From: a virus
Taxonomy: Duplodnaviria > Heunggongvirae > Uroviricota > Caudoviricetes
Direction: 5' to 3' (one strand)
Virus record (IMG/VR): IMGVR_UViG_3300000292_000047
Length of the DNA stretch: 48,335 nucleotides
Part shown: one piece after another, positions 1,009 through 48,335 of the stretch
Layout: the number at the start of each line of letters is the position of its first letter
Numbering within the stretch: position 1 is the stretch's first letter
Notes under the pieces: model-generated
Told to the model about the DNA's origin: nothing
The model's database searches: none
What the model saw: only the letters and a program-made list of their open reading frames with translations
Position numbers and translations under genes: made by a program

Positions 1009-1084
1009 TGGTGGCCCCTACCGGATTTGAACCGATGACCGTGCGATTATGAGTCGCCTGCTCTAACCACTAAGCTAAGGGGCC
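1009..1084 (-). tRNA. tRNA with CAT anticodon (Met or Ile2), CCA encoded
   Basis: Minus-strand reading GGCCCCT..CTCATAA..GGTTCAAATCC..AGGGGCCACCA; 7-bp acceptor stem, T-arm ATCGG/CCGGT, anticodon loop CTCATAA. Confidence 0.8.
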
Positions 1085-6448: not shown

Positions 6449-7516
6449 TCAGGCTTTCAATAGCGATTCTTTCAGATATCGGGCATCAGCCAGGGCGTTT
6501 GGCGTAATCTTGCGAACCCATGCATTACGGGTTGGACTCCACTTAAAGGCGCGTGATTTAAGCAGCGAACGAATGTTTGCCTCTGGTTTGCCAGGGAAAT
6601 AAAACAGGATGCGGTTATCCTCTGGATCTATCTCCATAGAAAAGCCGTCGTATTCTTCGCGCTGTGCTCCTGTTACAGACTTGACCGATTCAAGCTCCTT
6701 AATACGGCTCTGTAGTCGTTTGATTTCGGCGTTATTGTTGCTCAGTGCGTATGAAGGGAATCCGATGCGCCCACAGAAATCTCCGGCCAGTAACTCTTTG
6801 GCTTCGCTTTCTGTAAACCTGAGATCGATTAATGCAGAAAGCTGCTGTATTTGGTCTTTTTTGTATTTGCGAATGGCCTTATTTGCGGCCTTCATTTTGA
6901 CGTGTGACTTCATGCAGCCTTGCAGCTTACGAAGCAACTTAAATAGCGCATCAGGATCATCAGACGAAATTCCATTACGACCAACACCTGCGGCTTTGCT
7001 CTCGTAGTGTGATGCTTTACTTTCGCATTCAACAAACGCTTTTCTGAATAACGCATCAGCTTTAGACAAACGGCGGCGATGGCCTTTCGCGCTATAATGG
7101 TCAACTAAAATCGGCTGGCCTAACGGGATCACATCCAACAGGTCATGCGCTCGCTTATGCGCTACCGCACCTTCTTTTCTGGCTTTTTCTGCACGAGCAA
7201 TATATCGGGCAAGACGCGCGTTCTGGCGTTCCTGATAGGTGTTTACGTAATCATCTCCGCGCTGCTGCTGTTCAAGCCATGCTTTGCGCAGATCTTCTGT
7301 TACGTCCACCAGCTCCGCAGGGATACAACCAGTTTGGGCTTCATAAGAGTAACCATCCTCATAGATACGCCCATCGTCTTCAACAAAGAAAAAGGTTTCG
7401 TGCTCATCGCTTTTGACCATACGACCATTAACATGGCGTAATAGGTAGCCAGTATCAGTGCTTAACAGGCTGTTAGGGTTGTTGATCCAGTCAGAAATAA
7501 TTACTTGTTTATTCAT
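6449..7516 (-). CDS. Conserved hypothetical protein driven by leader copy B (possibly DUF3560-like)
   Basis: 355 aa from ATG 7514-7516 (MNKQVIISDW) immediately after leader SD ccggagaaatctg; family assignment from memory only. Confidence 0.55.
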   Translation of the reverse strand: MNKQVIISDWINNPNSLLSTDTGYLLRHVNGRMVKSDEHETFFFVEDDGRIYEDGYSYEAQTGCIPAELVDVTEDLRKAWLEQQQRGDDYVNTYQERQNARLARYIARAEKARKEGAVAHKRAHDLLDVIPLGQPILVDHYSAKGHRRRLSKADALFRKAFVECESKASHYESKAAGVGRNGISSDDPDALFKLLRKLQGCMKSHVKMKAANKAIRKYKKDQIQQLSALIDLRFTESEAKELLAGDFCGRIGFPSYALSNNNAEIKRLQSRIKELESVKSVTGAQREEYDGFSMEIDPEDNRILFYFPGKPEANIRSLLKSRAFKWSPTRNAWVRKITPNALADARYLKESLLKA

Positions 7517-7640
7517 CAGATTTCTCCGGTTTAACCAGGGCGGGTATCGCTCGGTTTCGGGTATAACCATAGGAAATTTTTTCCCACCTGTAAAGCACTT
7601 TTTATATAAATCTATAATTATATATTTATAGATTTTCGAT
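7517..7640. repeat. Copy B of ~105-bp promoter/5'-leader repeat
   Basis: Near-identical to 1-118 and 16999-17108. Confidence 0.85.
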
Positions 7641-11460: not shown

Positions 11461-11483
11461 CCAAACACATGGAGTCTCGACAA

Positions 11484-12137
11484 ATGACTATCTCTGTAGG
11501 TATTTTCAACGGAAAAGGCGGCGTAACCAAATCAACAATTGCCCGTGCTTTAGCAGTTGCTTATGCAAAGGCCGGCTGGAATGTATGCCTGATCGATATG
11601 GATGTGCTTAACGGAACGGTAACGCGTTGGGTACAACGCAGAATGGCCAACAATATCGAACCTGCAATCGCGGCGCAGCCGTGCGGCACGCCATCACAAG
11701 TCCAGAAAATCATCGAATCAGAAGTATACGACCTGGTTATCGTCGATGGCGGTGCCTACGCATCTGAATCAGTACCGAAGCTCTCTGAATTTCTGGATAT
11801 GGTTATTTTGCCAACCAGATTCTCTACCGATGACCTAGAAACCACCGTTAACACAGCTCACGGCATCGTTAAAAAGGGTGTGCCAATCAAGAAAATTTGC
11901 ATGGTGTTCTCAGGCGCGGCTGAAAACGAAGCCGACTACATTGAAGCCCAAGAGTACCTAGCTAATACGCCATACTTTGTTGTCGATAAGTACATTCCCC
12001 ACAAGCCAGCTCTGAGCAAAGCTCAGGATAAGGGCTTAAGCCTCATTGAATGCTCATACGTTGCGCCACGCAAAAAGGCAGACGACGTTATTCAGGGGAT
12101 TATCAACCAGCTTGAGGCTCTGACTACTGCCGCGTAA
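11484..12137 (+). CDS. parA: ParA/ParF-type partition ATPase (alternative ATG at 11469)
   Basis: Deviant Walker A GKGGVTKST; MinD/ParA fold; GGAG SD before ATG 11484. Confidence 0.8.
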   Translation: MTISVGIFNGKGGVTKSTIARALAVAYAKAGWNVCLIDMDVLNGTVTRWVQRRMANNIEPAIAAQPCGTPSQVQKIIESEVYDLVIVDGGAYASESVPKLSEFLDMVILPTRFSTDDLETTVNTAHGIVKKGVPIKKICMVFSGAAENEADYIEAQEYLANTPYFVVDKYIPHKPALSKAQDKGLSLIECSYVAPRKKADDVIQGIINQLEALTTAA

Positions 12138-12180: not shown

Positions 12181-12429
12181 ATGGCCGGACCATCAAAACC
12201 ACCAAAGAAGAACAGCAAAGGCGTACCGCCATCGATCGAACAACCGCAGGTTTTCGACCCGACTGAAACGCCAACCAGAACCAAATCAGGTGGGGCACAA
12301 ATGGCGTTTAACGTCGACCCTGAATTTAAACGCGAGTACAAAACGTTCGCCAGCTCAATGGATATGTCATTGAAAGAAGTGCTGACAAAATCTTTTGAGT
12401 TACTCAAGGCTCAATACAACCAGAAGTAA
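12181..12429 (+). CDS. ParG-like ribbon-helix-helix centromere-binding protein
   Basis: 82 aa immediately after ParA; basic unstructured N-terminus then predicted beta-strand/helix segment; AGAGGGG SD. Confidence 0.55.
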   Translation: MAGPSKPPKKNSKGVPPSIEQPQVFDPTETPTRTKSGGAQMAFNVDPEFKREYKTFASSMDMSLKEVLTKSFELLKAQYNQK

Positions 12430-12650: not shown

Positions 12651-12674
12651 TAAAAAAGGCCCCCGAAGGGGCCT
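12651..12674. terminator. Hairpin terminator, usable on minus strand (bidirectional candidate)
   Basis: aggcccc-cgaa-ggggcct perfect stem; A-run on plus gives U-run on minus. Confidence 0.6.
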
Positions 12675-12679
12675 AATCG

Positions 12680-12802
12680 CTACTTGCTGCTAATGTTTAT
12701 CGTCACATTCAGAGCGTTATCAGTAATCTTCCAACCCTCCCCATGTGGCGTAAACAAAGCCCCAGTAACAACGATAAAAATACACATACAGTATTTTTTC
12801 AT
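12680..12802 (-). CDS. Small hydrophobic peptide (40 aa), candidate type I toxin-like or exported peptide
   Basis: MKKYCMCIFIVVTGALFTPHGEGWKITDNALNVTINISSK; ATG inside track ORF 12680-12862; terminator immediately downstream. Confidence 0.3.
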   Translation of the reverse strand: MKKYCMCIFIVVTGALFTPHGEGWKITDNALNVTINISSK

Positions 12803-13200
12803 TGTATGGCCCTTACAGGCCGTTTCACGGCATCCCCACCGACGAAAACAACGCGAGAGCAAGCACGGCTGCTTGTGCTTGCATGTACGGCAACGGAGAA
12901 TCCTCCCCTAAAGTCGGTGCCCGGGTGCGAATCGGCGGGAAGGTCCACAGGTATTTTACGATTATTTTAAGATTAGTAATAGGAAAGAAATTAAACGAAA
13001 AAACTCGTTTATTTTCACAAAATCAGTAACCTACCCACAATCTGTGAGTTTGCAGGCACAACAAGAATCACAATTTTTTGAAGCATAATAGTGGACTATT
13101 ATTACCTTTTGGGTAAAATTAACTTGCTGCTTGTGCTTGCGTGGTTGTTTATACAACGACGTTATGCTGAAAGGACCGCGAATCCGATCAGCACGAAAGA

Positions 13201-13309: not shown

Positions 13310-13392
13310 CACTTTCCGAGCCGTAGCAAAATCTACGGTCGGGATTGGAACCCCGTAGACACAATGGCGCATACCGCGTTAGCGGTTTTTTT
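13310..13392 (+). ncRNA. Candidate small structured RNA ending at intrinsic terminator, upstream of antirepressor operon
   Basis: TTGACA at 13285-13290; hairpins ccgtag/ctacgg; terminator accgc-gtta-gcggt + T7 (13373-13392); no ORF. Confidence 0.3.
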
Positions 13393-13558
13393 ATGCGTAA
13401 AGCACTGCTACACCCAAATTATGGTGGGGCGTGCGGGGGAGTCGTAAGACTCGCCGGTTCGTCATTGTGTCCGGTAGTTCCAACCCTGCACGTCTCACCA
13501 CCCAATGATTGGAACCTGACGGTGGTGAGTATCCTTAACCTTTAAGGGAATCATCACA

Positions 13559-13750
13559 ATGACAAACCTACCCCATGACTATTACGTCAACCTCGTAAAG
13601 ATCCTTCTCAAGAAAGCCTCATACGCCGATAAATTCCGCCTGGCTGAAATCATCGAGCGCGAAGCTATGCGCATCGCCAGCAACGATAACGCTGTTTCTG
13701 ACGCAAAAATCTCCCTCGTAACCAAAGTTGTTATGGGAGGTGCAAAATGA
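13559..13750 (+). CDS. Small protein translationally coupled to antirepressor
   Basis: 63 aa; stop overlaps ant start (ATGA). Confidence 0.45.
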   Translation: MTNLPHDYYVNLVKILLKKASYADKFRLAEIIEREAMRIASNDNAVSDAKISLVTKVVMGGAK

Positions 13751-14898
13751 AAACGCTTCCGATCGTTAACACCCTACAGCCTATCCTGCATAATCAGATT
13801 CCAGTAATCACAACTGAGCTACTCGCCCGCCTTTATGGAACAGAAGCAATCCGTATACAGCAAAATCACCATGAAAATAAAACTCGGTTCATTGAGGGGA
13901 AGCACTTCTTTAAAGCTGTTGGTGATGAACTCAAAAATTTGCGACTAGTTTTAAACGAGTCACAAAATGAGGTGCAAATTTCCCCCAAAACTCGCTCTCT
14001 CATCCTCTGGACAGAACGCGGGGCTGCACGTCACGCCAAAATGCTTGAAACTAACCAAGCGTGGGATGTGTTCGAACGGCTGGAAGACTGCTATTTCAAC
14101 CAGAACGCGCAAACGGCCGCGACCGTTACCGTCTCGCCAAACAATCCTCGTGAGGTTGTCGATACGCTCAACGCCAAACCGATGTTTTACATTAAGGTGT
14201 GCAACAACGAGCCACTCACAACCTCAGCCGATGTTGCCCAGGCATTCAGCACCACAAACAATTCCATCGTTATGGCCATCGATGCGTTACGCATTCCTCG
14301 TACAGCTGCGGCACGTCATTTCTTTAAAGAGCAACGACCGCTGGAAGGAAGCGACCGCGAAATAACAATCTATCGCATGACAAAAGACGGATTTACCTTG
14401 CTCATGGAAAGTATCGACGGTCCAGGCGTGAAAGATATCAAGCTGGCCTACATTGAAGCCTTTAACGCTATCAGCAGCGTGTTAAAAACACAGTACGAGC
14501 GTGATCTGGCTAAACGACTGTACCAGGAAAAAACGATTATCCGCGCGGCAACAGAGCATAATCGGCTATTAACAGAACCGAAATACAGGAAGGAACTAAT
14601 CAAGGAGTTTGACAAGGCAACAGGGAAAACCAAAGCGGCGCTAAATCTGCCAGCAATGACTCAGGAAAATGTGATATCAGCCTTACTTCTTGATCTGCTC
14701 AGAAACGCCAGAGCACTTATCAGCTTTGACGAAAACCTGAATCCTCAGCTCAAGCTACTACCACCGACAGGCAAAGTAGTCGACCAGGCTGATCACAACA
14801 GCATACTCAGCGTACTGGATGCAAACCTGCCAGCCAGGACACTACAGGATCTGATAAAAACATGTGCTGATAAGCTGGCACAGAAGAGCAGACCATAA
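13747..14898 (+). CDS. Antirepressor-type regulatory protein (ORF6N-like N-terminus + Rha domain)
   Basis: 383 aa; ITIYRMTKDGFTLLMESIDGPGVKDIKLAYIEAFN matches Rha pattern; GGAGG SD. Confidence 0.7.
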   Translation: MKTLPIVNTLQPILHNQIPVITTELLARLYGTEAIRIQQNHHENKTRFIEGKHFFKAVGDELKNLRLVLNESQNEVQISPKTRSLILWTERGAARHAKMLETNQAWDVFERLEDCYFNQNAQTAATVTVSPNNPREVVDTLNAKPMFYIKVCNNEPLTTSADVAQAFSTTNNSIVMAIDALRIPRTAAARHFFKEQRPLEGSDREITIYRMTKDGFTLLMESIDGPGVKDIKLAYIEAFNAISSVLKTQYERDLAKRLYQEKTIIRAATEHNRLLTEPKYRKELIKEFDKATGKTKAALNLPAMTQENVISALLLDLLRNARALISFDENLNPQLKLLPPTGKVVDQADHNSILSVLDANLPARTLQDLIKTCADKLAQKSRP

Positions 14899-17154: not shown

Positions 17155-17454
17155 TCAGATGTTAAACGCTATTCGTTTTCCTGTGGGAAGCTCAACATCC
17201 AGGCTTAATTTGCCTCCCATAGCTTCAACGTAACGCTTTAATGTCGCCAGCTTTAAATCATTTCCGCGCTGCTCCAGCTTTGTTACTGCTGGCTGGCTTA
17301 TACCCATCGCCTCAGCAACCTGTTTTTGTGATAACTGGAGTTCTTCACGCATCATCTGCAAGCCGACCTCAAGAATCATCTCATCTGCCATTTCTTTAAT
17401 TCGCGCCTGGCTTTCAGGTGAACGGCTGGCAATCACCTCATCTAATGTTCTCAT
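17155..17454 (-). CDS. higA: HigA-like antitoxin (XRE HTH)
   Basis: 99 aa; LSQKQVAEAMGISQPAVTKLE HTH; directly downstream of toxin gene. Confidence 0.65.
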   Translation of the reverse strand: MRTLDEVIASRSPESQARIKEMADEMILEVGLQMMREELQLSQKQVAEAMGISQPAVTKLEQRGNDLKLATLKRYVEAMGGKLSLDVELPTGKRIAFNI

Positions 17455-17801
17455 TACTTGCTCTCCAGTGTGTTCAGATGTGCTGCAAACTCATCCTCAG
17501 CTATACGCACCAGTTTTTCATAAAACCGTTTATCGTTACTTTTGTCTCCTGCACAAAGAACGATGGCCCGGCGAATCGGATCGAACGCATAAAAGGCTCT
17601 TATCGGACGGCCAGAAAACTGAACGCGAAGCTCTTTCATATTTTTGTACCGAGAACCTTTTACGGTATCGGCATATGGCCTGGGTAACTCAGGTCCGTAA
17701 ACCTGTAGCTTTTTCAAATCAGCCAAAACCTTTTCCTGAAGAGCGTCTTCTTGCTCATTTAGCCAGTCGTCAAATCGCTGGCTAAAAAGTACCGTCCACA
17801 T
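17454..17801 (-). CDS. higB: HigB / Gp49-family (RelE/ParE superfamily) toxin
   Basis: Track start is TTG; ATG 17799-17801 with AGGA SD; ELRVQFSGRPIRAFYAF...LCAGDKSNDKRFYEKLVRIAEDE pattern. Confidence 0.65.
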   Translation of the reverse strand: MWTVLFSQRFDDWLNEQEDALQEKVLADLKKLQVYGPELPRPYADTVKGSRYKNMKELRVQFSGRPIRAFYAFDPIRRAIVLCAGDKSNDKRFYEKLVRIAEDEFAAHLNTLESK

Positions 17802-17810
17802 GCTCAATCC

Positions 17811-18620: not shown

Positions 18621-18999
18621 AACCATCTCCATTTATTATATCTACGATGGTAGGAAATCTTTTCCTATGTGGCAATAGAAATTTACTACATTGCGTATAA
18701 GACAAGTTTTCTATGTCTAATAGGAAATGATGTTTCTTACATTTTATCGCGTTCTGATGGCTACTGTGTGCGTATTTATCGACGTTTATTGATAAGGCTC
18801 GCCCCTTCCTCCTGCAAAGCCCGGCCGTAGGCCTTATTTCGGCCTTATATAAATTGATTTTGTATAGTTCGAAACGTGCCGTTTCGAAAAGGATGATCAG
18901 GCTGCTCCATGCCTCCGGCAAGTGCCGGAGGAGGTATATTTGAGCGTAGCGACTCGAACCGGCGCGAGCTTTAGCTCGCTGCAAGGGCGAACATATTCA

Positions 19000-19260
19000 C
19001 AGGCAAAGCCTGCGTAAGTTAAATAAAGAAAGTCTTAATAAAAGAAAGTGATTTTGCATTTATTTGTTTAGTGCATCTATTATAAAAAACCATTTGCATA
19101 TACATATCAGAACTGTGGATAACTTTATTAGCCGATGCCTGTAAAGGCGATATTTTTGCTGTGTTCAGGTTTAGAGAAAATTAATTTAGATTGTTTTTTG
19201 AACAGATATTTTATTGCGACGTAGATAATCCTCCGGTAAAACCGGATTCATCATTCAGGT
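19000..19260. promoter_or_regulatory. Candidate replication origin downstream of repA (AT-rich, DnaA box)
   Basis: Perfect DnaA box TTATCCACA on minus strand at 19114-19122; AT-rich flanks. Confidence 0.5.
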
Positions 19261-19263
19261 GGG

Positions 19264-20112
19264 TTAATGTTGGAGTGATTTCCAGGTCTTTCTTAACCTG
19301 TTATAACGCTGCTCAACGAGGGATCGTAAATATGCAAGGTCAGCACCAGGATACATGCCATCAGCAAATTCCTGACTAACCTCTCTGGTGATTTGATGAC
19401 GAAGTTCGGCCTCTCCCTTTTCCCGAACAAGACGCGCAGCTCTCTCCGCTGCTTTCTGTTTTGCCTTTATCTCTCTGGCCGTCTTCCTCTGACGCCATAC
19501 ATTCTCCATCTGCTCCTGAATAACAATACGCTTATAATCAGCCTCCGTTATCGCTTTTTTAAGCCGTTCGCTATTCTTCGCATTGAAGTAATTAAGTTTC
19601 TGGCTAACCGCACGTCTCCATGCTTGTTCAGTAATACCAACGGTTTCCAGCAGTTGATCACGAATCTCTATTTTCGCTGGCCAATACTGTTTATTCACCC
19701 GATCCCAGCGACGTTCATAATCAATAAAACCTAACGCTTTCAGTTGCGACAACGCCCTTGTACAGCGCGTTATAGACTTGTTCCCAGCTTCGGATACGGT
19801 AGACAGGCCGCAAAAATCAGCCAACGCCTCAGCACTAGCCAGAACCCGCTTAGAAATGATGTTTACATGGTGCAAAATCGCAGCGATCACAGCATTAATC
19901 GCCCGACGACGATGCTCGTTTATCCGGCGCTTCCGCTCTGACGGTTGATTAACGTAGAACGCAACCTCACACGTAAGATCACGCCCATTAATGCGCTGTA
20001 AAGCATCAGATAACACCAGCGGCAGCTTGTGCGTATGGTGCTTTGGAGGCTGGAACTCCGGCGACAAATTACAAACGTAAGCTGAACGTAGAGACGGCAT
20101 TGGTCTATCCAT
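19264..20112 (-). CDS. repA: IncFII-type (RepFIIA-like) replication initiator RepA; in-frame upstream ATG at 20244 possible
   Basis: RRRAINAVI and GLSTVSEAGNKSITRCTRALSQLKALGFIDYE align by eye with R100 RepA1 (RRRAIDALL, GLATESAAGKLSITRATRALTFLSELGLITYQ); ATG 20110-20112. Confidence 0.7.
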   Translation of the reverse strand: MDRPMPSLRSAYVCNLSPEFQPPKHHTHKLPLVLSDALQRINGRDLTCEVAFYVNQPSERKRRINEHRRRAINAVIAAILHHVNIISKRVLASAEALADFCGLSTVSEAGNKSITRCTRALSQLKALGFIDYERRWDRVNKQYWPAKIEIRDQLLETVGITEQAWRRAVSQKLNYFNAKNSERLKKAITEADYKRIVIQEQMENVWRQRKTAREIKAKQKAAERAARLVREKGEAELRHQITREVSQEFADGMYPGADLAYLRSLVEQRYNRLRKTWKSLQH

Positions 20113-20156
20113 ATGTTCGCTCTTGCGTCCACGGAAAACCAACGTATAATGGGAGT

Positions 20157-20237
20157 TGTCGAGGCGCCCATGGATTGTTGTTGTTGGTTTTCCGTGGATG
20201 TCGCAAGAAGCCCGCAGATTTATCTGCGGGCTTTTTG
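20157..20237 (+). ncRNA. CopA-like antisense RNA countertranscript to repA leader
   Basis: TTGCGT-N16-TATAAT at 20123-20150; strong terminator gcccgcaga-ttta-tctgcgggc + T5 at 20210-20236. Confidence 0.55.
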
Positions 20238-20710
20238 TTTCCATATCTGGTCACTTTCCAACCAGACACCCACAATCATAACCACGTTACGTGGTTTTAA
20301 GAGAACTCTACCACAACACTTTCGGTCATGCACGAAGTCTCTCACTGATCGAACGATAATCCACCAGTAAAAGGATCTAAATTGGATCTCGTTTTGCGAG
20401 CATCATACTACTGGCCTAACTCCAGTCAATGATTCCCAGCCAGAAACCTGCGGTAAACTCATCGTTCAGCAATATGCTGTCCGGCTTCAAAGATAAGGTG
20501 ACATCATCCCTTAACAGCGCGGCCAGTTCAGTTAAAGGGCTGTTCTGATTTAATGCTGGCCACTCATACCTGGTAATAAGTGGTCAGTCTTAACACTCAC
20601 CATTTGATTGCACCCGTGTTGACGATTTGTTACTGGATATCAGACACGCTGGATAGCCAGTAGAAACATACCATTAAAATTATTACAATAATTGGTCACA
20701 TGATTATCTT

Positions 20711-21274
20711 ATGCTGAATAATAAAGATATGAATATTAATGAACTTAAAGACTGTATTCACTATGAAGTAATCGGTAGCGAGCGTCCTTTCTCCTGGCGA
20801 AAGGCAATTGTTCGCGCAATAAAACATAGAAGGGTTCGTTATTTATTTTGGTGGCGCATAGCCAAATACCTTTTTGATAAAGGCGGATACTGTCGGAAGA
20901 TTGCGGGAAAAATAGAACGTTTCATTCTTGATAAATATAATGTAACAGTCCCTTTAACTGTAAATATAGGGAAAGGCTTTGATATTTCTTATCTCAACAG
21001 TGTTGTTATCGGTCACAAAGTAACAATCGGTGAAAATTGTTCAATTAAGCCCGGAGTAACTATTGGACTTCGCGGGGAATTTAATGATATGGATATTGTT
21101 ATAGGGCATAATGTGACCATTGGTTGTAATGCCACCATTCTTGGTGGCAAAGTGCGTATAGGAAACAATGTCACAATAGGTGCTCATGCATTGGTATTGC
21201 ATGATATTCCTGATGATTCAACATTCATCACTAAATTTCAGTCTGAAGTTATCTGCTCGTCCTCCCGAACATAA
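20711..21274 (+). CDS. Hexapeptide-repeat (left-handed beta-helix) acetyltransferase, moron
   Basis: 187 aa; repeated [LIV]-G-x-x-x-x hexapeptides; AT-rich relative to neighbours; 3' end overlaps convergent Tfa gene. Confidence 0.7.
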
Positions 21275-41979: not shown

Positions 41980-42531
41980 TTATTCTTCCTGCTTAATAAA
42001 TCGGGATTCCTGGAGCGCCTGAAGCGCAAAATTAATCTCGTCTTCAATAATGCGCTCGATCTCCCTGGCTGTTTTGCCTTCACAACGGGGAGCTGCTCTT
42101 GGAGCAATACTAAATAAGCGGCTACGCAATTCATTAGCTGCCAGAAATGCATCATCCCTGACCGCATCTTTAGCGATGAGAGAGCCTTCCTTTTCTTCAA
42201 ATTCAAGGCGTTTCAGCTTTGCCTGATAAATTTTTTCTGCGGTCTTAGCCTTGTTGAATTGCACCGCAACACCGGAAGTACCACCAGCTAATCCGGCATC
42301 ATCAGCGGGTAACTCTGGTTGTTCCGAAGATATCCCATGCCCTCTTTTTCCATTTTCAGCAGATACCTCACGACCAACCTGTCGGCTCGCTTCATAAGCC
42401 GCACTGGCTTTATCAAAATCCAGCTTGCCGCTTTTCAGCACTGGAATGCGACCGGAACGACAGAGCTTCGTAACCATTGCCGGAGAAATACCTTTCCGGC
42501 GGGCAAACTCTGACTTACTGACGATGGCCAT
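41980..42531 (-). CDS. Terminase small subunit (HTH)
   Basis: Track start TTG; ATG at 42529-42531; N-terminal HTH SKSEFARRKGISPAMVTKL. Confidence 0.55.
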   Translation of the reverse strand: MAIVSKSEFARRKGISPAMVTKLCRSGRIPVLKSGKLDFDKASAAYEASRQVGREVSAENGKRGHGISSEQPELPADDAGLAGGTSGVAVQFNKAKTAEKIYQAKLKRLEFEEKEGSLIAKDAVRDDAFLAANELRSRLFSIAPRAAPRCEGKTAREIERIIEDEINFALQALQESRFIKQEE

Positions 42532-43121
42532 TACTTGCAACCATTAGCAAGATACTGAACAAATCCCTCATGCGTTTCATGCGCGTCGTGGTACTGACGA
42601 TAAACATCCAGCAACAATGCAATTTCCATATCCGTCGCGGGAATACGTTCTTTATCAATAGCCAGGTACTTAATTTGAACAACAGGGGAAGAATTATCGT
42701 CTTCTTCCTGCGGCTGTTCATCGCTTAACATTTCGTCAAGCTCTGCATCATTAAACCCAAGCAGATCAATATCAAAATCATCATCCATTAACTCTTTGAC
42801 TTCTTCGGCCAGAAGCTGCATATCCCAGCCAGCATTTAAGGCCAGCTTGTTATCTGCAATCCTGTAAGCCTTCTTCTGTTTTTCAGAAAGGTTACTCAAC
42901 CGAATCGCCGGAACTTTATCCATTTCCAGAATTTCGGCTGCTGCAAGCCGACCATGCCCCGCAATCAGTTCATTCTTTTCATCGATCAGCACAGGATTAG
43001 TGAAACCGAACTCACGGATACTGTTCACCAACTGTTCAACTTGCTCATCTGAATGAGTCCGTGAATTTTTGGCATATCTGAGCAGCTTACCGACTGGTAA
43101 ATATTCGATTTTTAGAGTCAT
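42531..43121 (-). CDS. ParB-like nuclease domain protein
   Basis: 196 aa; ParB N-terminal fold motifs (LIAGHGRLAAA); paralog of 45788-46411. Confidence 0.7.
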   Translation of the reverse strand: MTLKIEYLPVGKLLRYAKNSRTHSDEQVEQLVNSIREFGFTNPVLIDEKNELIAGHGRLAAAEILEMDKVPAIRLSNLSEKQKKAYRIADNKLALNAGWDMQLLAEEVKELMDDDFDIDLLGFNDAELDEMLSDEQPQEEDDNSSPVVQIKYLAIDKERIPATDMEIALLLDVYRQYHDAHETHEGFVQYLANGCK

Positions 43122-43678
43122 TTTTTAACCACCATAACACAACAGGTTAAAGAAAACTGTTTAACTTATTGATACTAAAAGAGAAAAATGACGATCTTTT
43201 TACTCATAAAAAATCACACAAACCAGCATAATTATCTGATTTTATTAAGTTTTTATAAGTAAAAAGGATCTTGCGATGGTGTTTTGGTTAAAAGATTGGA
43301 TGTATTTGCATGATTTATAACGATTTTTATCAGAACAACATCACATTGGTTAAAGATCTGCGCGTATCTTGATGATCTAAAAGAAAATTTTCTACTTTCT
43401 TTTTACCAGCACAAATACAGCAAAAAATCACGTTTTCCCGATATTTTTCAATGAGATGAGTAAATTTCTTTTACCGCAACTTTTAACCTAACTTTTTTCA
43501 CGTTTAGCTAGCCGAACATCGGGGTTCGAATGACCCGCATCCAACGCTTTTGGCCAGAAGGACCCAATTCTGCCGGACGATGAAACGATGCTCGTGCTCA
43601 CCCACAGACAGCCAGCGAGCGACGCTACAGAACACAGTGAATACACCCTGCATAACAACACCATCAACCACACGATGA

Positions 43679-44398
43679 TTAACGAGAGAACGTCTTAGAA
43701 AGAATGTCATCAATAGCCTTTGTGACTTCATCAGCAAACGCATCCTCACCAGCACGTAGCGCCACGCCATGCCAATCAAGACGCTGCGAATAGTTAGGTT
43801 GCTGGATAAACGTAAGGATCAACGTAGGACGCCGCCCAACGCGCTGCCAGACGCCTGGTTGAAGCGGGTTACTTGTACCAGGTCGAACAACAAAAAACTC
43901 CGTAGGCTTGCCCTGACGGCGATTTTGATGCGCATCTCGCTGAACTCTTAGGCCAGATAAGACCTGCTGTAATTGCCCCCGCGAAATATTCCCGTATTTG
44001 TCCAGCTTTGCGCCGGGACCAGGAGCAAGCTGCCAGCCGTTAGGCAAATATCCACCAGCCCTTAGCGCCCCTTCTGAGCGTTTGTACTGTCGTTGGCCAC
44101 CTTCGATTTGCGGAGTCAACGTTACAGGGGCTGGCGTTCCTCCCCATTCACGAGCATACACAATGGCTGTAGGATCACTCTTCTTTGCGGCCAAAACGTA
44201 AGTAGAGTTCTGAATCCACGGCGTGGGCCTGTCAAATACCCGATTAATTTCATTCTTAATCGCAGCCTGAGAAGCCTTTGCCGTTCTGGTTGCCGCAAGC
44301 GCCATTGCGAATGGCAATTCACGTTCTTCAAGGCGCTGGAGTTGTCGTTGAATATCCTGAGAAGAAAAATCCATCTTTATCTCAATTCTGTCAGCCAC
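43679..44398 (-). CDS. Hypothetical protein
   Basis: 239 aa; GTG start with AGGAGG SD. Confidence 0.45.
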   Translation of the reverse strand: MADRIEIKMDFSSQDIQRQLQRLEERELPFAMALAATRTAKASQAAIKNEINRVFDRPTPWIQNSTYVLAAKKSDPTAIVYAREWGGTPAPVTLTPQIEGGQRQYKRSEGALRAGGYLPNGWQLAPGPGAKLDKYGNISRGQLQQVLSGLRVQRDAHQNRRQGKPTEFFVVRPGTSNPLQPGVWQRVGRRPTLILTFIQQPNYSQRLDWHGVALRAGEDAFADEVTKAIDDILSKTFSR

Positions 44399-44414
44399 CA
44401 GCGCCTCCTACACA

Positions 44415-45788
44415 CTACTTAATCAACGGCCGGAAAGCCGCCAGCACATCATCAGATCGTCCGATTGTTGAACCACCAGGCAACGGCAACTCAAACTCAA
44501 AACGAACAGCTTTCTCCAGACTCTCCCAGCGAAGAGAATCATCGTTAATAACGTGCAAATACCAGCTCTTACAGTTGAATATTGACCGCTTAATCCTGAA
44601 ACCATGTACACGACACAACTGCTTCACTTCATCATCAGAGTGAAACTTCTGGTAAAACCAGTGCCCCTTCCGGTACAACGCGGTAAAACCGTTATGATCA
44701 ATAAAATAAAGCCGGCTTTTGGAACTCGCCGCTTGTGTTTGCTTCAGGACTGTTTCCAGCTCTCCACGGCTACGACCAGAAAAGAATATTGACCCACCAG
44801 CTTTACACAGGCCTTTCAGAACCGTCAGAACAGACCATTCAGCCTCGACACTATCGACCGAGTTCAAAACGCTATCGCAAATCACGTAGTCGTAACGCCC
44901 TCGCGTTTTTAAGTCGTCCACCAGCGTATCAATCATCCGGTTTGTTGCGGTCCTATCCAGAGTGTTTCCAGCGCCCTTACGGCGGAAAAGCTCGAGATCA
45001 TGCAGGTTATATCCCTTTGCCCTGAGCATTCGCGCGTAGTCTCCCTGCCCCGAACCAAAATCAATTCCTCTTGGCGTCTTGGCAATGATCGGGAGGATCA
45101 ACGACTCATACAGGTTTGATTTCAGGCTGCCACCATTACGCAACCGCATAAGCTGCGCATACGTCTGGATGTATGTTGTTTTCTCCAGATGAGAATACTC
45201 AAATACACCATAAGTTTTATTCAGATAACTTTGGTATTTTTCCTTCTCAACATCAGGGATCACAAACACCGTTAGCGGTGTGCGCGTCATTTTCGCTGCT
45301 AATGCATACTGAGCACAGTGAATAACCTCACCAGACTGAGTAGCAACACAACCACCCCACGGACCATACTTGATAACCAGTTCCGCTATGTTCTTTCGAA
45401 CATATGCCATTTTCGCGCGCATATTGCCTGAGATCTGGCTTGCCGATACCTGAACAAAACCATGCTTATCTTCCAGACCGGACACCCTGCAACGCTCATC
45501 TCCGCTATCAAAATCCGTTCCGTTATGCAGTTGGTTAAACCGTACTTCGTCGTATACCGTCGTTTCACAGGGCAACACATACACCGCAGCACGCGTTATT
45601 CCCAACTTACGTAGCGCCTTCGTCCTTTGGTGTCCCGCCACCAGCAAATCGCCGCGCACTATCAATGGCTTCACAAGCCCCAGCTCCCTGACGCTTTCCG
45701 CCAGCCTCGCAAGATCATCCTCACCGATAAAACGCGGGTTATATTCCGCGCCGCGTAGGTGCGTTATGTCGTAATTCAGGTGAAGCAT
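44415..45788 (-). CDS. ParB-like domain fused to class I SAM-dependent methyltransferase
   Basis: N-terminal ParB-like region (LVAGHQRTKAL); C-terminal GIDFGSGQGDYA motif I; ATG 45786-45788 with GGAGG SD, TGATG coupling to upstream gene. Confidence 0.7.
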   Translation of the reverse strand: MLHLNYDITHLRGAEYNPRFIGEDDLARLAESVRELGLVKPLIVRGDLLVAGHQRTKALRKLGITRAAVYVLPCETTVYDEVRFNQLHNGTDFDSGDERCRVSGLEDKHGFVQVSASQISGNMRAKMAYVRKNIAELVIKYGPWGGCVATQSGEVIHCAQYALAAKMTRTPLTVFVIPDVEKEKYQSYLNKTYGVFEYSHLEKTTYIQTYAQLMRLRNGGSLKSNLYESLILPIIAKTPRGIDFGSGQGDYARMLRAKGYNLHDLELFRRKGAGNTLDRTATNRMIDTLVDDLKTRGRYDYVICDSVLNSVDSVEAEWSVLTVLKGLCKAGGSIFFSGRSRGELETVLKQTQAASSKSRLYFIDHNGFTALYRKGHWFYQKFHSDDEVKQLCRVHGFRIKRSIFNCKSWYLHVINDDSLRWESLEKAVRFEFELPLPGGSTIGRSDDVLAAFRPLIK

Positions 45789-46411
45789 CAGCACACCTCC
45801 CCAGCCAGCAATGCGGATACAAATCCGATATAGCTGCCATTATCATCAACATAACGAGACACCGCGCAGTCAAAACGATCCGCTTCCTCATCCGTTGCCG
45901 GGATTTTATGACCTCCAAATGACAGGTACTGAACTTTTACGCCTGATTTGGCCTCATCCTTCTCAAATGGGATATCCATACCCTCTGTGTCATCGTAGAC
46001 CGCCGCACTCAATAAGTTATCCAGTTCGCGCTGAGTAAAACCAATTGAGTCCAGAGCAAAATCATCGGCCGCAAGATCTGCAAGCTCCGCGCTTAACAAC
46101 TCTTCATCCCAACCAGCATTCAGCGGAATACGGTTGTCGGCCAGACGATATGCCTTCTTCTGATTCTCCGTTAGCCCAGCCAGAACAATGCAGGGAACAT
46201 CATCCATCCCCAACTGAGTGGCCGCAGCAATTCGACCATGACCAGCAATTACAACGTTGTTCTCGTCTATCAGGATCGGATTAGTCCATCCGTACTCCTG
46301 TATGCTGGCAACAATCTGATCTACCTGCTCCACGGAGTGTGTGCGAGCGTTCTTTTCATAACCAATCAACACAGAAAGTGGTAAAGAAACCACATTAAGA
46401 TGTTTTGTCAT
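45788..46411 (-). CDS. ParB-like nuclease domain protein
   Basis: 207 aa; VIAGHGRIAAA; shares C-terminal region with 42531-43121. Confidence 0.7.
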   Translation of the reverse strand: MTKHLNVVSLPLSVLIGYEKNARTHSVEQVDQIVASIQEYGWTNPILIDENNVVIAGHGRIAAATQLGMDDVPCIVLAGLTENQKKAYRLADNRIPLNAGWDEELLSAELADLAADDFALDSIGFTQRELDNLLSAAVYDDTEGMDIPFEKDEAKSGVKVQYLSFGGHKIPATDEEADRFDCAVSRYVDDNGSYIGFVSALLAGEVC

Positions 46412-48014: not shown

Positions 48015-48283
48015 CACTCATCATCTCCTGCCGCACATACAACCTCACAAAAAAAATCAGCAGAATGTTTCTCCTTGAACGAATGACGCTCAAAACCGCA
48101 CTCAATATCAGGCGCAAAAACATCCACCACATACGGTCTTTCAGAATGTTTGTTTTCCCAACGATAAACCGTAGTGACGTTGAAATGTTTTAACGCTTCA
48201 CGGAACTCAACGCTGCCCGTCAGGTTTTTTGAGGTCAGGTATTGCAGGAGGTTTTTTACTACTTCACGGTCTTGTACTTTCAT
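48014..48283 (-). CDS. Hypothetical protein, first gene behind leader copy A/D
   Basis: 89 aa; ATG 48281-48283 directly after ccggagaaatctg. Confidence 0.5.
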   Translation of the reverse strand: MKVQDREVVKNLLQYLTSKNLTGSVEFREALKHFNVTTVYRWENKHSERPYVVDVFAPDIECGFERHSFKEKHSADFFCEVVCAAGDDE

Positions 48284-48335
48284 CAGATTTCTCCGGTTTA
48301 ACCAGGGCGGGTATCGCTCGGTTTCGGGTATAACC
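48282..48335. repeat. Copy D of leader repeat, identical to window positions 1-54
   Basis: 54/54 identity with window start. Confidence 0.9.

Follow-up and report, generated by a model that had tools for sequence, protein, structure and literature searches.

How does a temperate tailed phage keep itself in its host as a free circular molecule? The question is raised by a virus genome of the Caudoviricetes, IMGVR_UViG_3300000292_000047 (48,335 nt; we call this whole stretch the window), in which a first-pass annotation, made from the sequence alone, had described a minus-strand gene and its surroundings as an IncFII-type plasmid replicon inside a tailed-phage genome. Our analysis indicates that the region 18860–20430, which holds the replication gene repA, a candidate origin downstream of it and a long leader with a predicted antisense RNA upstream, is very probably the plasmid-maintenance replicon of a temperate myovirus living as a circular plasmid prophage. 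Such a module explains why this phage family is always seen in Escherichia coli as a free 48-kb circular plasmid.

The gene at the centre of the region is a minus-strand open reading frame (ORF) that ends at 19264 and, in the ORF list, stays open to an ATG at 20244, giving 326 aa. The protein search against the RepFIIA family that had been proposed as a check was positive in two profile libraries. Pfam PF02387 (IncFII_repA) matched residues 53–319 of the 326-aa ORF with an E-value of 1.3e-43 and 149.8 bits (cutoff 22.9), covering profile positions 2–272 of 275, and NCBIfam NF040977 (RepA_IncFII_LM) scored 231.5 bits (cutoff 70) over the entire profile, 1–266 of 266. The second of these is a broad model, which the control proteins also pass (classical IncFII RepA, 273.8 bits; pOXA-48 IncL/M RepA, 327.9 bits). 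The likeness to R100/R1 RepA1 that had been noticed by eye was reproduced by BLASTP, with 40% identity to the classical IncFII RepA over 97 residues (E 2e-19) and the same motifs, RRRAI... and GL.T.S.AG..SITR.TRAL..L..LG.I.Y; identity to the pOXA-48 RepA was 20% over 107 residues. The shared 97 residues are the winged-helix core, which lies centrally in the protein. Among solved structures RepA had no sequence homologue, and by fold it gave generic winged-helix matches only. Judged by sequence, RepA is an initiator of the IncFII/IncL-M superfamily. PHROGs holds the same family as phrog_7060, with "unknown function".

As to its extent, the coding sequence had been placed at 19264–20112. The frame and the identification as repA stand, but the start has to be moved, as the one conserved across the family is the ATG at 20100, from which the protein begins MPSLRS.... 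The in-frame ATG at 20112 has a better Shine-Dalgarno motif (AAGAG) and is restricted to the Escherichia lineage; the Shine-Dalgarno sequence before the conserved ATG is weak. The 326-aa version annotated in E. coli plasmids is over-extended, because the ATG at 20244 is ATC or ACC in relatives, nearly all RepA relatives at 58–85% identity have 277 aa, the profiles match only from residues 53–58 on, and the extension overlaps the predicted antisense terminator and a loop with non-triplet indels. Within the conserved frame, 239 of 277 residues are identical between RepA and its Salmonella orthologue, 123 of them encoded by a different codon; the two genes differ by 51% at third codon positions and by 10.5% at first and second positions. 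With dN at 0.09–0.14 and synonymous sites saturated, the substitution pattern indicates that repA is under strong purifying selection.

The DNA downstream of repA has the layout of an IncFII origin (Table 1). In a classical IncFII plasmid the origin likewise lies downstream of repA after a similar hairpin and spacer; at its near edge is a DnaA box, on the repA strand and 176 nt beyond the stop codon (142 nt in the window), and AT-rich DNA follows. An AT-rich region with a perfect DnaA box had been reported here, and both parts of that description hold: GC content is 0.28–0.32 between 19000 and 19250 and 0.28 in the AT-rich stretch itself, and the box is the sole TTATNCACA in the window. As stand-alone evidence the box was dropped, since one match is the chance expectation (94 of 100 shuffled windows contain at least one such 9-mer). 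Because the count alone equals chance, its weight comes from its position and from its conservation in relatives 74% identical. It is kept in all lineages, reading TTATTCACA in two Salmonella relatives, and stands at the edge where conservation picks up again beyond the diverged spacer. From the box onward, about 260 nt have hardly changed among six lineages that differ from one another at about 26% of bases in repA.

Table 1 Features of the replicon region in the window, ordered from the repA promoter to the far end of the origin.
Feature	Positions	Strand	Description
Putative repA promoter	20402–20429	−	TTGACT (20429–20424), 16 nt, TATGAT (20407–20402); predicted start near 20395
Leader hairpin AACCACG-N3-CGTGGTT	20280–20296	−	Stem kept in all lineages; loop variable
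Putative antisense (countertranscript) RNA	20157–20240	+	About 80 nt; two stem-loops
Antisense stem-loop I	20163–20202	+	16-nt loop UUGUUGUUGUUGGUUU
Antisense stem-loop II	20203–20238	+	Intrinsic terminator with U-run, predicted by folding
Proximal element P	20183–20208	−	Predicted 5' arm of long-range helix B; predicted target of antisense stem-loop I
Putative antisense promoter	20123–20150	+	TTGCGT (20123–20128), 16 nt, TATAAT (20145–20150)
Distal element D, GUUGGUUUUCCGUGGACGCAAGA	20121–20143	−	Predicted alternative partners: P, forming helix B, and the repA start region, forming hairpin III
Start region R	20098–20113	−	Holds ATG 20112 and ATG 20100; predicted hairpin III pairs R with 20130–20144
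repA coding sequence	19264–20100	−	278 aa from the conserved ATG 20100; 282 aa if ATG 20112
Hairpin TCCGGTTTTACCGGAGG	19230–19246	−	Directly after the repA stop; CCGG...CCGGAG stem kept in eight sequences
Spacer	19123–19229	−	Diverged among relatives; resembles the CIS region of IncFII plasmids
DnaA box TTATCCACA	19114–19122	− (repA strand)	142 nt past the repA stop; perfect match
Origin core	19000–19113	−	Near-invariant across six lineages; ATGCA boxes, AT-rich stretch, hairpin
Three conserved ATGCA boxes	19090–19099, 19067–19077, 19050–19060	−	Candidate RepA sites
AT-rich stretch	19019–19066	−	Two 15-nt direct repeats (19019–19033, 19035–19049)
Hairpin	19000–19012	−	Within the origin core
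GC-rich block	18860–18999	−	Three conserved hairpins (18964–18979, 18912–18931, 18868–18888)

By homology with R1 and R100, RepA made from a long-leader mRNA would act on the origin that directly follows its own gene. It would bind the conserved sites beside the DnaA box, for which the ATGCA boxes are the candidates suggested by the sequence, and with host DnaA would open the adjacent AT-rich DNA, whereupon host DnaB/DnaC and primase would start theta replication. The hairpins of the GC-rich block show compensatory changes (for example GCGAGCT.AGCTCGC to GCGGACT.ACGTCCGC) and, by their position, might serve in priming, as does the primase site beyond oriR in R1. As for nucleotide homology to an R1-type origin, hairpins that look alike and one identical stretch of 13 nt (E 0.025) were too little to claim it.

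The setting of this module is that of a phage-plasmid. The window begins and ends with the same 54 nt (1–54 and 48282–48335), and plasmid CP032259 runs uninterrupted across the corresponding junction, so the assembly closes into a circle of about 48,281 bp that has no host flanks. On that single replicon stand a tailed-phage gene set (lambda-type terminase with TerL, portal and capsid; a contractile tail with sheath and tube; a Mu/P2-like baseplate and fibre), holins, an endolysin and a cI-like repressor, together with plasmid replication and partition genes. The partition and stability genes named in the first-pass annotation, parA/parG and higBA, are borne out for ParA (11469–12137, with a small ORF downstream) and for a HigB-like pair (Gp49 toxin and helix-turn-helix antitoxin, 17454–17807 and 17155–17454); the 82-aa "parG" (12181–12429) has no Pfam match and is plausible by position only. 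No integrase was matched or annotated among the ORFs scanned and in the annotation of a close relative.

Integration had been named as the observation that would speak against a phage-plasmid lifestyle, and none was seen. Of 5,426 complete E. coli genomes, 71 carry the replicon, among them that of the quality-control strain ATCC 25922. The copies number 82; every one is on a plasmid of 32–94 kb and none on a chromosome. PLSDB likewise has 71 plasmids that carry the replicon, at 98% identity or more; 69 are typed non-mobilizable, and MOB-suite assigned no replicon type to those inspected. In the ATCC 25922 record CP032086 (94,204 bp) there are two copies of the replicon, suggesting either a dimer or a duplication introduced by assembly. 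Beyond E. coli the family occurs in Salmonella, Klebsiella aerogenes, E. fergusonii and E. albertii, and the origin and control elements are conserved across the Escherichia, Salmonella and Klebsiella lineages. Relatives have also been deposited as isolated phages. The Yersinia phages vB_YpM_39/41/44, isolated on Y. pestis EV76, match 60–81% of the window at about 98% identity and carry the replicon; in their records RepA is a "hypothetical protein". Over the structural half, identity is 99.6–99.8% in two partial genomes of Escherichia phages.

Could the replicon nevertheless be an inactive remnant acquired by recombination, in a phage that integrates or is a defective prophage? No support for this was found, even if ParA and the toxin-antitoxin genes could in principle be cargo. 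The lack of any chromosomal copy and of a recognised integrase, the purifying selection on repA and the conservation of origin and control elements from Escherichia to Klebsiella all speak against it, as does the persistence of the element as a plasmid after loss of phage early genes, and we regard a remnant as extremely improbable. The last point comes from pCREC-544_3 (NZ_CP024829.1), a circular plasmid of 32,182 bp from which the repressor, parA, all of the early operon and the lysis genes are missing and which retains the toxin-antitoxin pair, structural genes and, as its only recognisable replication function, repA with its origin; as a natural deletion it suggests that repA and the origin suffice for plasmid life. 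A different proposal is that they are the phage's only replication system, for lytic growth as well as for the plasmid, with no separate lytic replicon of the kind P1 has. In line with this, no lambda O/P-type initiator, helicase or helicase loader was found among the nine early-operon ORFs tested, as had been noted before for O/P-type genes, and the DnaA box of the origin has no second copy in the window. Five of the early ORFs have no known function, however, and could hide a lytic initiator; a 373-aa DUF3560 protein (6449–7570, minus strand) partially matches the "primase" PHROG phrog_19458 (E 3.6e-37, residues 191–369), the sole sequence hint at a second replication function. Sufficiency for plasmid life is all that the 32-kb deletion plasmid shows; on lytic growth it is silent, and an antisense-limited initiator is ill-suited to runaway lytic replication unless its control is bypassed. 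We consider a sole replication system rather unlikely, if by no means negligible.

How, then, might the synthesis of RepA be held in check? A putative repA promoter with 10 of 12 consensus matches in a promoter scan would give a leader of about 290 nt; both hexamers are kept in all ten aligned relatives, and their flanks diverge. No ORF is listed between this promoter and repA, and the next gene upstream is an invertase or an acetyltransferase. In relatives with a different left-hand neighbour, homology stops at about 20457, just upstream of the promoter. On the opposite strand, the hexamers of a putative antisense promoter are invariant in ten sequences from six lineages, with a terminator 80 nt downstream. 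The promoter scan missed this promoter because its −35 hexamer matches at 3 of 6 positions, and it was read directly from the sequence. The predicted antisense RNA folds at −41.1 kcal/mol (z −6.5), a stability that none of 200 shuffled sequences reached, and RNAalifold recovered the same two stem-loops from eight sequences with three compensatory pairs. According to the ORF list, the plus strand has no gene upstream that this terminator could serve.

The antisense region belongs to no family in Rfam, which returned neither CopA nor any other antisense family even at E-values up to 10; as a control, the CopA model RF00042 scored 106.3 bits on the classical IncFII plasmid. Weak Thr-leader and trpB matches merely reflect the hairpin-plus-terminator shape and were set aside. 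Two other modes of control were also rejected. A conserved leader peptide was sought in each of three frames in seven lineages, and no ORF was common to all, three of the seven having none whatever; transcription attenuation was dismissed since the sense strand has no terminator-like hairpin with a U-run after the antisense target. In the leader hairpin at 20280–20296, changes from G:C to G:U that keep the stem suggest constraint at the RNA level. Three GATC (Dam) sites fall within about 50 nt (20340–20395) just past the putative repA transcription start. Neither this cluster nor the leader hairpin is accounted for by the switch proposed below.

Folding points to two mutually exclusive structures in the leader. 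In the minimum-energy fold, distal element D pairs with proximal element P to form helix B; alternatively, D can pair with the start region R in hairpin III. Counted across the alignment, with slid partners as control, 89.6% of cells are paired in helix B (34–47% when slid), with three pairs changed on both sides, and 90% in hairpin III (27–56% when slid). Both pairings are retained across six lineages, and hairpin III is predicted in all seven despite sequence differences in the stretch. One position of D, alignment column 315 (T in Escherichia, A in the other lineages), covaries with column 265 and likewise with column 349, its partners in the two alternative pairings. When the antisense target was masked in silico, the fold moved from helix B to hairpin III, and in six of seven lineages the number of paired bases around the ATG rose from 6–11 to 11–16 of 18.

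These structures, taken with the sequence and its covariation, lead us to model copy-number control as follows. A constitutive antisense RNA of about 80 nt would be made from the strand opposite the repA leader. In free mRNA, D, which lies beside the ribosome-binding region, would pair with P and leave the repA start accessible; binding of the antisense RNA to P would free D to pair with R, burying the start codons and turning RepA synthesis off. That these RNAs are made, and that the switch runs in this direction, we infer from the sequence. A leader-peptide-free, three-way RNA switch of this kind, with the countertranscript tipping the balance, may thus set the copy number, and the same RepA and origin might serve lytic replication once the control is overridden. 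We put this forward tentatively, with a confidence that falls slightly short of even.

Several observations weigh against the switch. Both promoters are consensus matches only, the antisense −35 being weak (3/6). The covariation comes from about six lineages and amounts to three compensatory pairs in helix B and two in hairpin III, and the paired counts are inflated because the window's own sequence was used to derive the structures. In the S. salamae lineage, masking the antisense target gives no rise in pairing around the ATG. Helix B covers part of the AAGAG motif before ATG 20112 and so could be inhibitory, at least for that start. Finally, relatives with about 60% identical RepA have a wholly different upstream region, which means that the control module is not a fixed partner of RepA.

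The point about helix B leads to a different role for the antisense RNA, in which it acts through RNase III cleavage and decay of repA mRNA, or in which helix B is itself a translational repressor opened by other factors. Helix B pairs CUUGCG with CGCAAG, overlapping the AAGAG 8 nt upstream of ATG 20112, and would be worth about −35 kcal/mol (derived from a −58.6 kcal/mol fold of a segment that includes the terminator hairpin). In R1, RNase III cleaves CopA–CopT duplexes, a precedent for the first of these routes. Yet hairpin III shows covariation in every lineage, and it is precisely the loss of P as a partner that puts the conserved start inside this hairpin, as predicted if pairing of P with D activates translation, and a repressing helix B would have antisense binding activate RepA synthesis, which makes stable copy-number control impossible; we judge such alternatives unlikely. 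Less probable still is control in the manner of R1 or ColIb-P9, where the antisense RNA blocks translation of a leader peptide to which repA is coupled. The window does have a 56-codon ORF with a TTG start that ends at TAG 20107–20105, four nt before ATG 20100, in two lineages the stop of a 14-codon TTG ORF overlaps the repA start as ATGA, and the weak Shine-Dalgarno sequence at the conserved ATG is usual for coupled genes. Against coupling stand the failure to find a leader ORF common to the lineages, the replacement of the in-loop ATG 20171 by CTG in two of them, indels in the target loop that are not multiples of three, and the behaviour of PGAP, which annotates tap in classical IncFII plasmids and not here.

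The relatives with about 60% identical RepA lie on 45-kb contigs (L010 and L011) that share the Mu-like baseplate backbone. Since the sequence upstream of repA is unrelated in these contigs, they were discarded as a source of covariation. In L010 and L011 9516–10004 the antisense leader is replaced by a 162-aa truncated RepA-like winged-helix paralogue (NF040977, 43 bits, profile positions 53–164) whose stop overlaps the repA ATG and which may be a protein-based regulator. A 63% identical RepA sits on a contig with type IV secretion genes, with UUGGCG in a leader hairpin loop. Together, these contigs indicate that the initiator is common to phage-plasmids and conjugative-type plasmids and that the control module has been swapped. 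Beyond the phage-plasmid clade and its tiers at 58–63% identity, the nearest full-length RepA found is 37% identical over 94% of the protein and belongs to p09A18011_A_KPC, a pKPC_UVA01-like plasmid (MOB-suite rep_cluster_1367); it too passes NF040977, and its carrier is a conventional mobilizable resistance plasmid.

Whether the replicon deserves the name IncFII depends on the sense of the term. R1 and R100 (copB, copA, tap, repA, oriR) have a RepA of the same superfamily that also passes NF040977, and in the window, as there, RepA synthesis appears to be limited by a countertranscript of the leader. Beyond the winged-helix core, however, the two proteins have little in common. By contrast, the models that define the classical group were far from reached: RepA scored 78.6 bits on the equivalog TIGR03474 (cutoff 446.9) and 82.2 on PRK13750 (cutoff 478), whereas a classical IncFII RepA scored 581.5 and 618.1 bits. 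Neither CopA nor tap nor copB was found here by Rfam, among leader ORFs in seven lineages or in the ORF list. The replicon also shares cells with true IncFII plasmids in at least two strains: strain AR_0067 has an identical copy (CP032259) beside a copB-tap-repA IncF plasmid (CP032258), and ECONIH1 has it beside the IncFII-typed pECO-824. This co-residence is indirect evidence that it is not IncFII in the incompatibility sense. The original label is accordingly correct by protein superfamily and origin layout and incorrect by the features that define R1/R100 and by incompatibility group.

In its predicted control the replicon comes closer to the I-complex and IncL/M plasmids (ColIb-P9 repY-repZ/Inc RNA, pMU720 repB-repA/RNAI and pMU407.1), where antisense RNA and long-range pairing likewise compete for the first leader stem-loop and a freed distal segment goes into a start-hiding hairpin. 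In ColIb-P9 and IncB plasmids this competition is for one RNA site (PMC8053102, citing Asano and Mizobuchi 1998), and the mechanisms of R1 CopA/tap and of the IncI1/IncB pseudoknot have been summarised (PMC8053102, PMC5717011). In our folding model the long-range pairing is, here as well, an alternative to the start-hiding hairpin. The differences are a leader peptide (repY or repB) with no conserved counterpart here, a short pseudoknot there as against a long-range helix of 15–23 bp, and the 5'-UUGGCG-3' loop motif, which is absent from the window's target loop, AAAACCAACAACAACAAU.

Among phages, the element resembles P1 (IncY), N15 and SSU5/pHCM2, which are also temperate tailed phages living as low-copy plasmids with an initiator, ParA-type partition and toxin-antitoxin genes. 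These are larger (55–111 kb against about 48 kb), and their backbone is not that of the present element, whose head is lambda-type and whose contractile tail is Mu/P2-like. Nor is the initiator family the same, RepA of P1 being an iteron-binding protein; P1 also has a separate lytic replicon, of which no counterpart is recognisable in the window. Ten well-defined phage-plasmid types, those that current typing tools detect, have been tabulated (PMC12977533, PMC11652158), and, judged by the tabulated sizes and hosts only, the present family does not appear to be one of them. In the P1 and pMT1 groups of phage-plasmids, replicons of IncFII type are already on record (PMC11652158).

Other parts of the window have features of their own. 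Some 220 nt past the downstream end of the parA operon there is a full-length ryfA RNA (12652–12948, minus strand; 141.8 bits against a cutoff of 80). The ryfA locus of Salmonella corresponds to timP/timR, a type I toxin-antitoxin system, and the copy here may be a second post-segregational killing module beside the HigB-like pair. An isrK RNA (13320–13392) and a C4 antisense RNA (13417–13505) precede an ORF6N/Rha antirepressor gene (13747–14898, plus strand). By sequence, this arrangement looks like an immI-like module in the style of P1 and P7, which have a similar C4 antisense RNA and antirepressor; in the relative CP032259 an IS21 copy is inserted beside it. To the left of the replicon, 20458–20553 is a 96-nt remnant matching P88-type tail genes and 20711–21274 encodes a hexapeptide acetyltransferase, whereas most relatives have, beyond about 20457, a Hin-type invertase and an invertible tail-fibre segment instead. 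Three proteins with ParB N-terminal (ParB/Srx-like) domains, encoded at 42531–46411 on the minus strand, adjoin the terminase genes, the one at 44415–45794 being fused to a methyltransferase domain. An MT-A70 methyltransferase gene lies at 114–701, and a tRNA gene (1012–1084, minus strand; 65.8 bits) is located in the late/lysis region.

Phage-plasmids and IncFII-family replicons are both well known, and the present results do not overturn current understanding. Our literature searches found no paper on the 48-kb family or on the deposited phages related to it; the survey of enterobacterial plasmid prophages by Gilcrease and Casjens (2018) may already cover it. The family is heavily sequenced, with RepA automatically annotated in RefSeq, and is common yet under-recognised. 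A named replicon provides a marker for detecting this type of phage-plasmid in assemblies, predicts compatibility with IncF resistance plasmids and explains the spread of "cryptic non-mobilizable plasmids", which would travel by infection as phage particles. The proposed RNA switch offers a compact and directly testable system for antisense control and, if true, would be a simpler, purely RNA-based relative of the pseudoknot mechanism of the I-complex plasmids.

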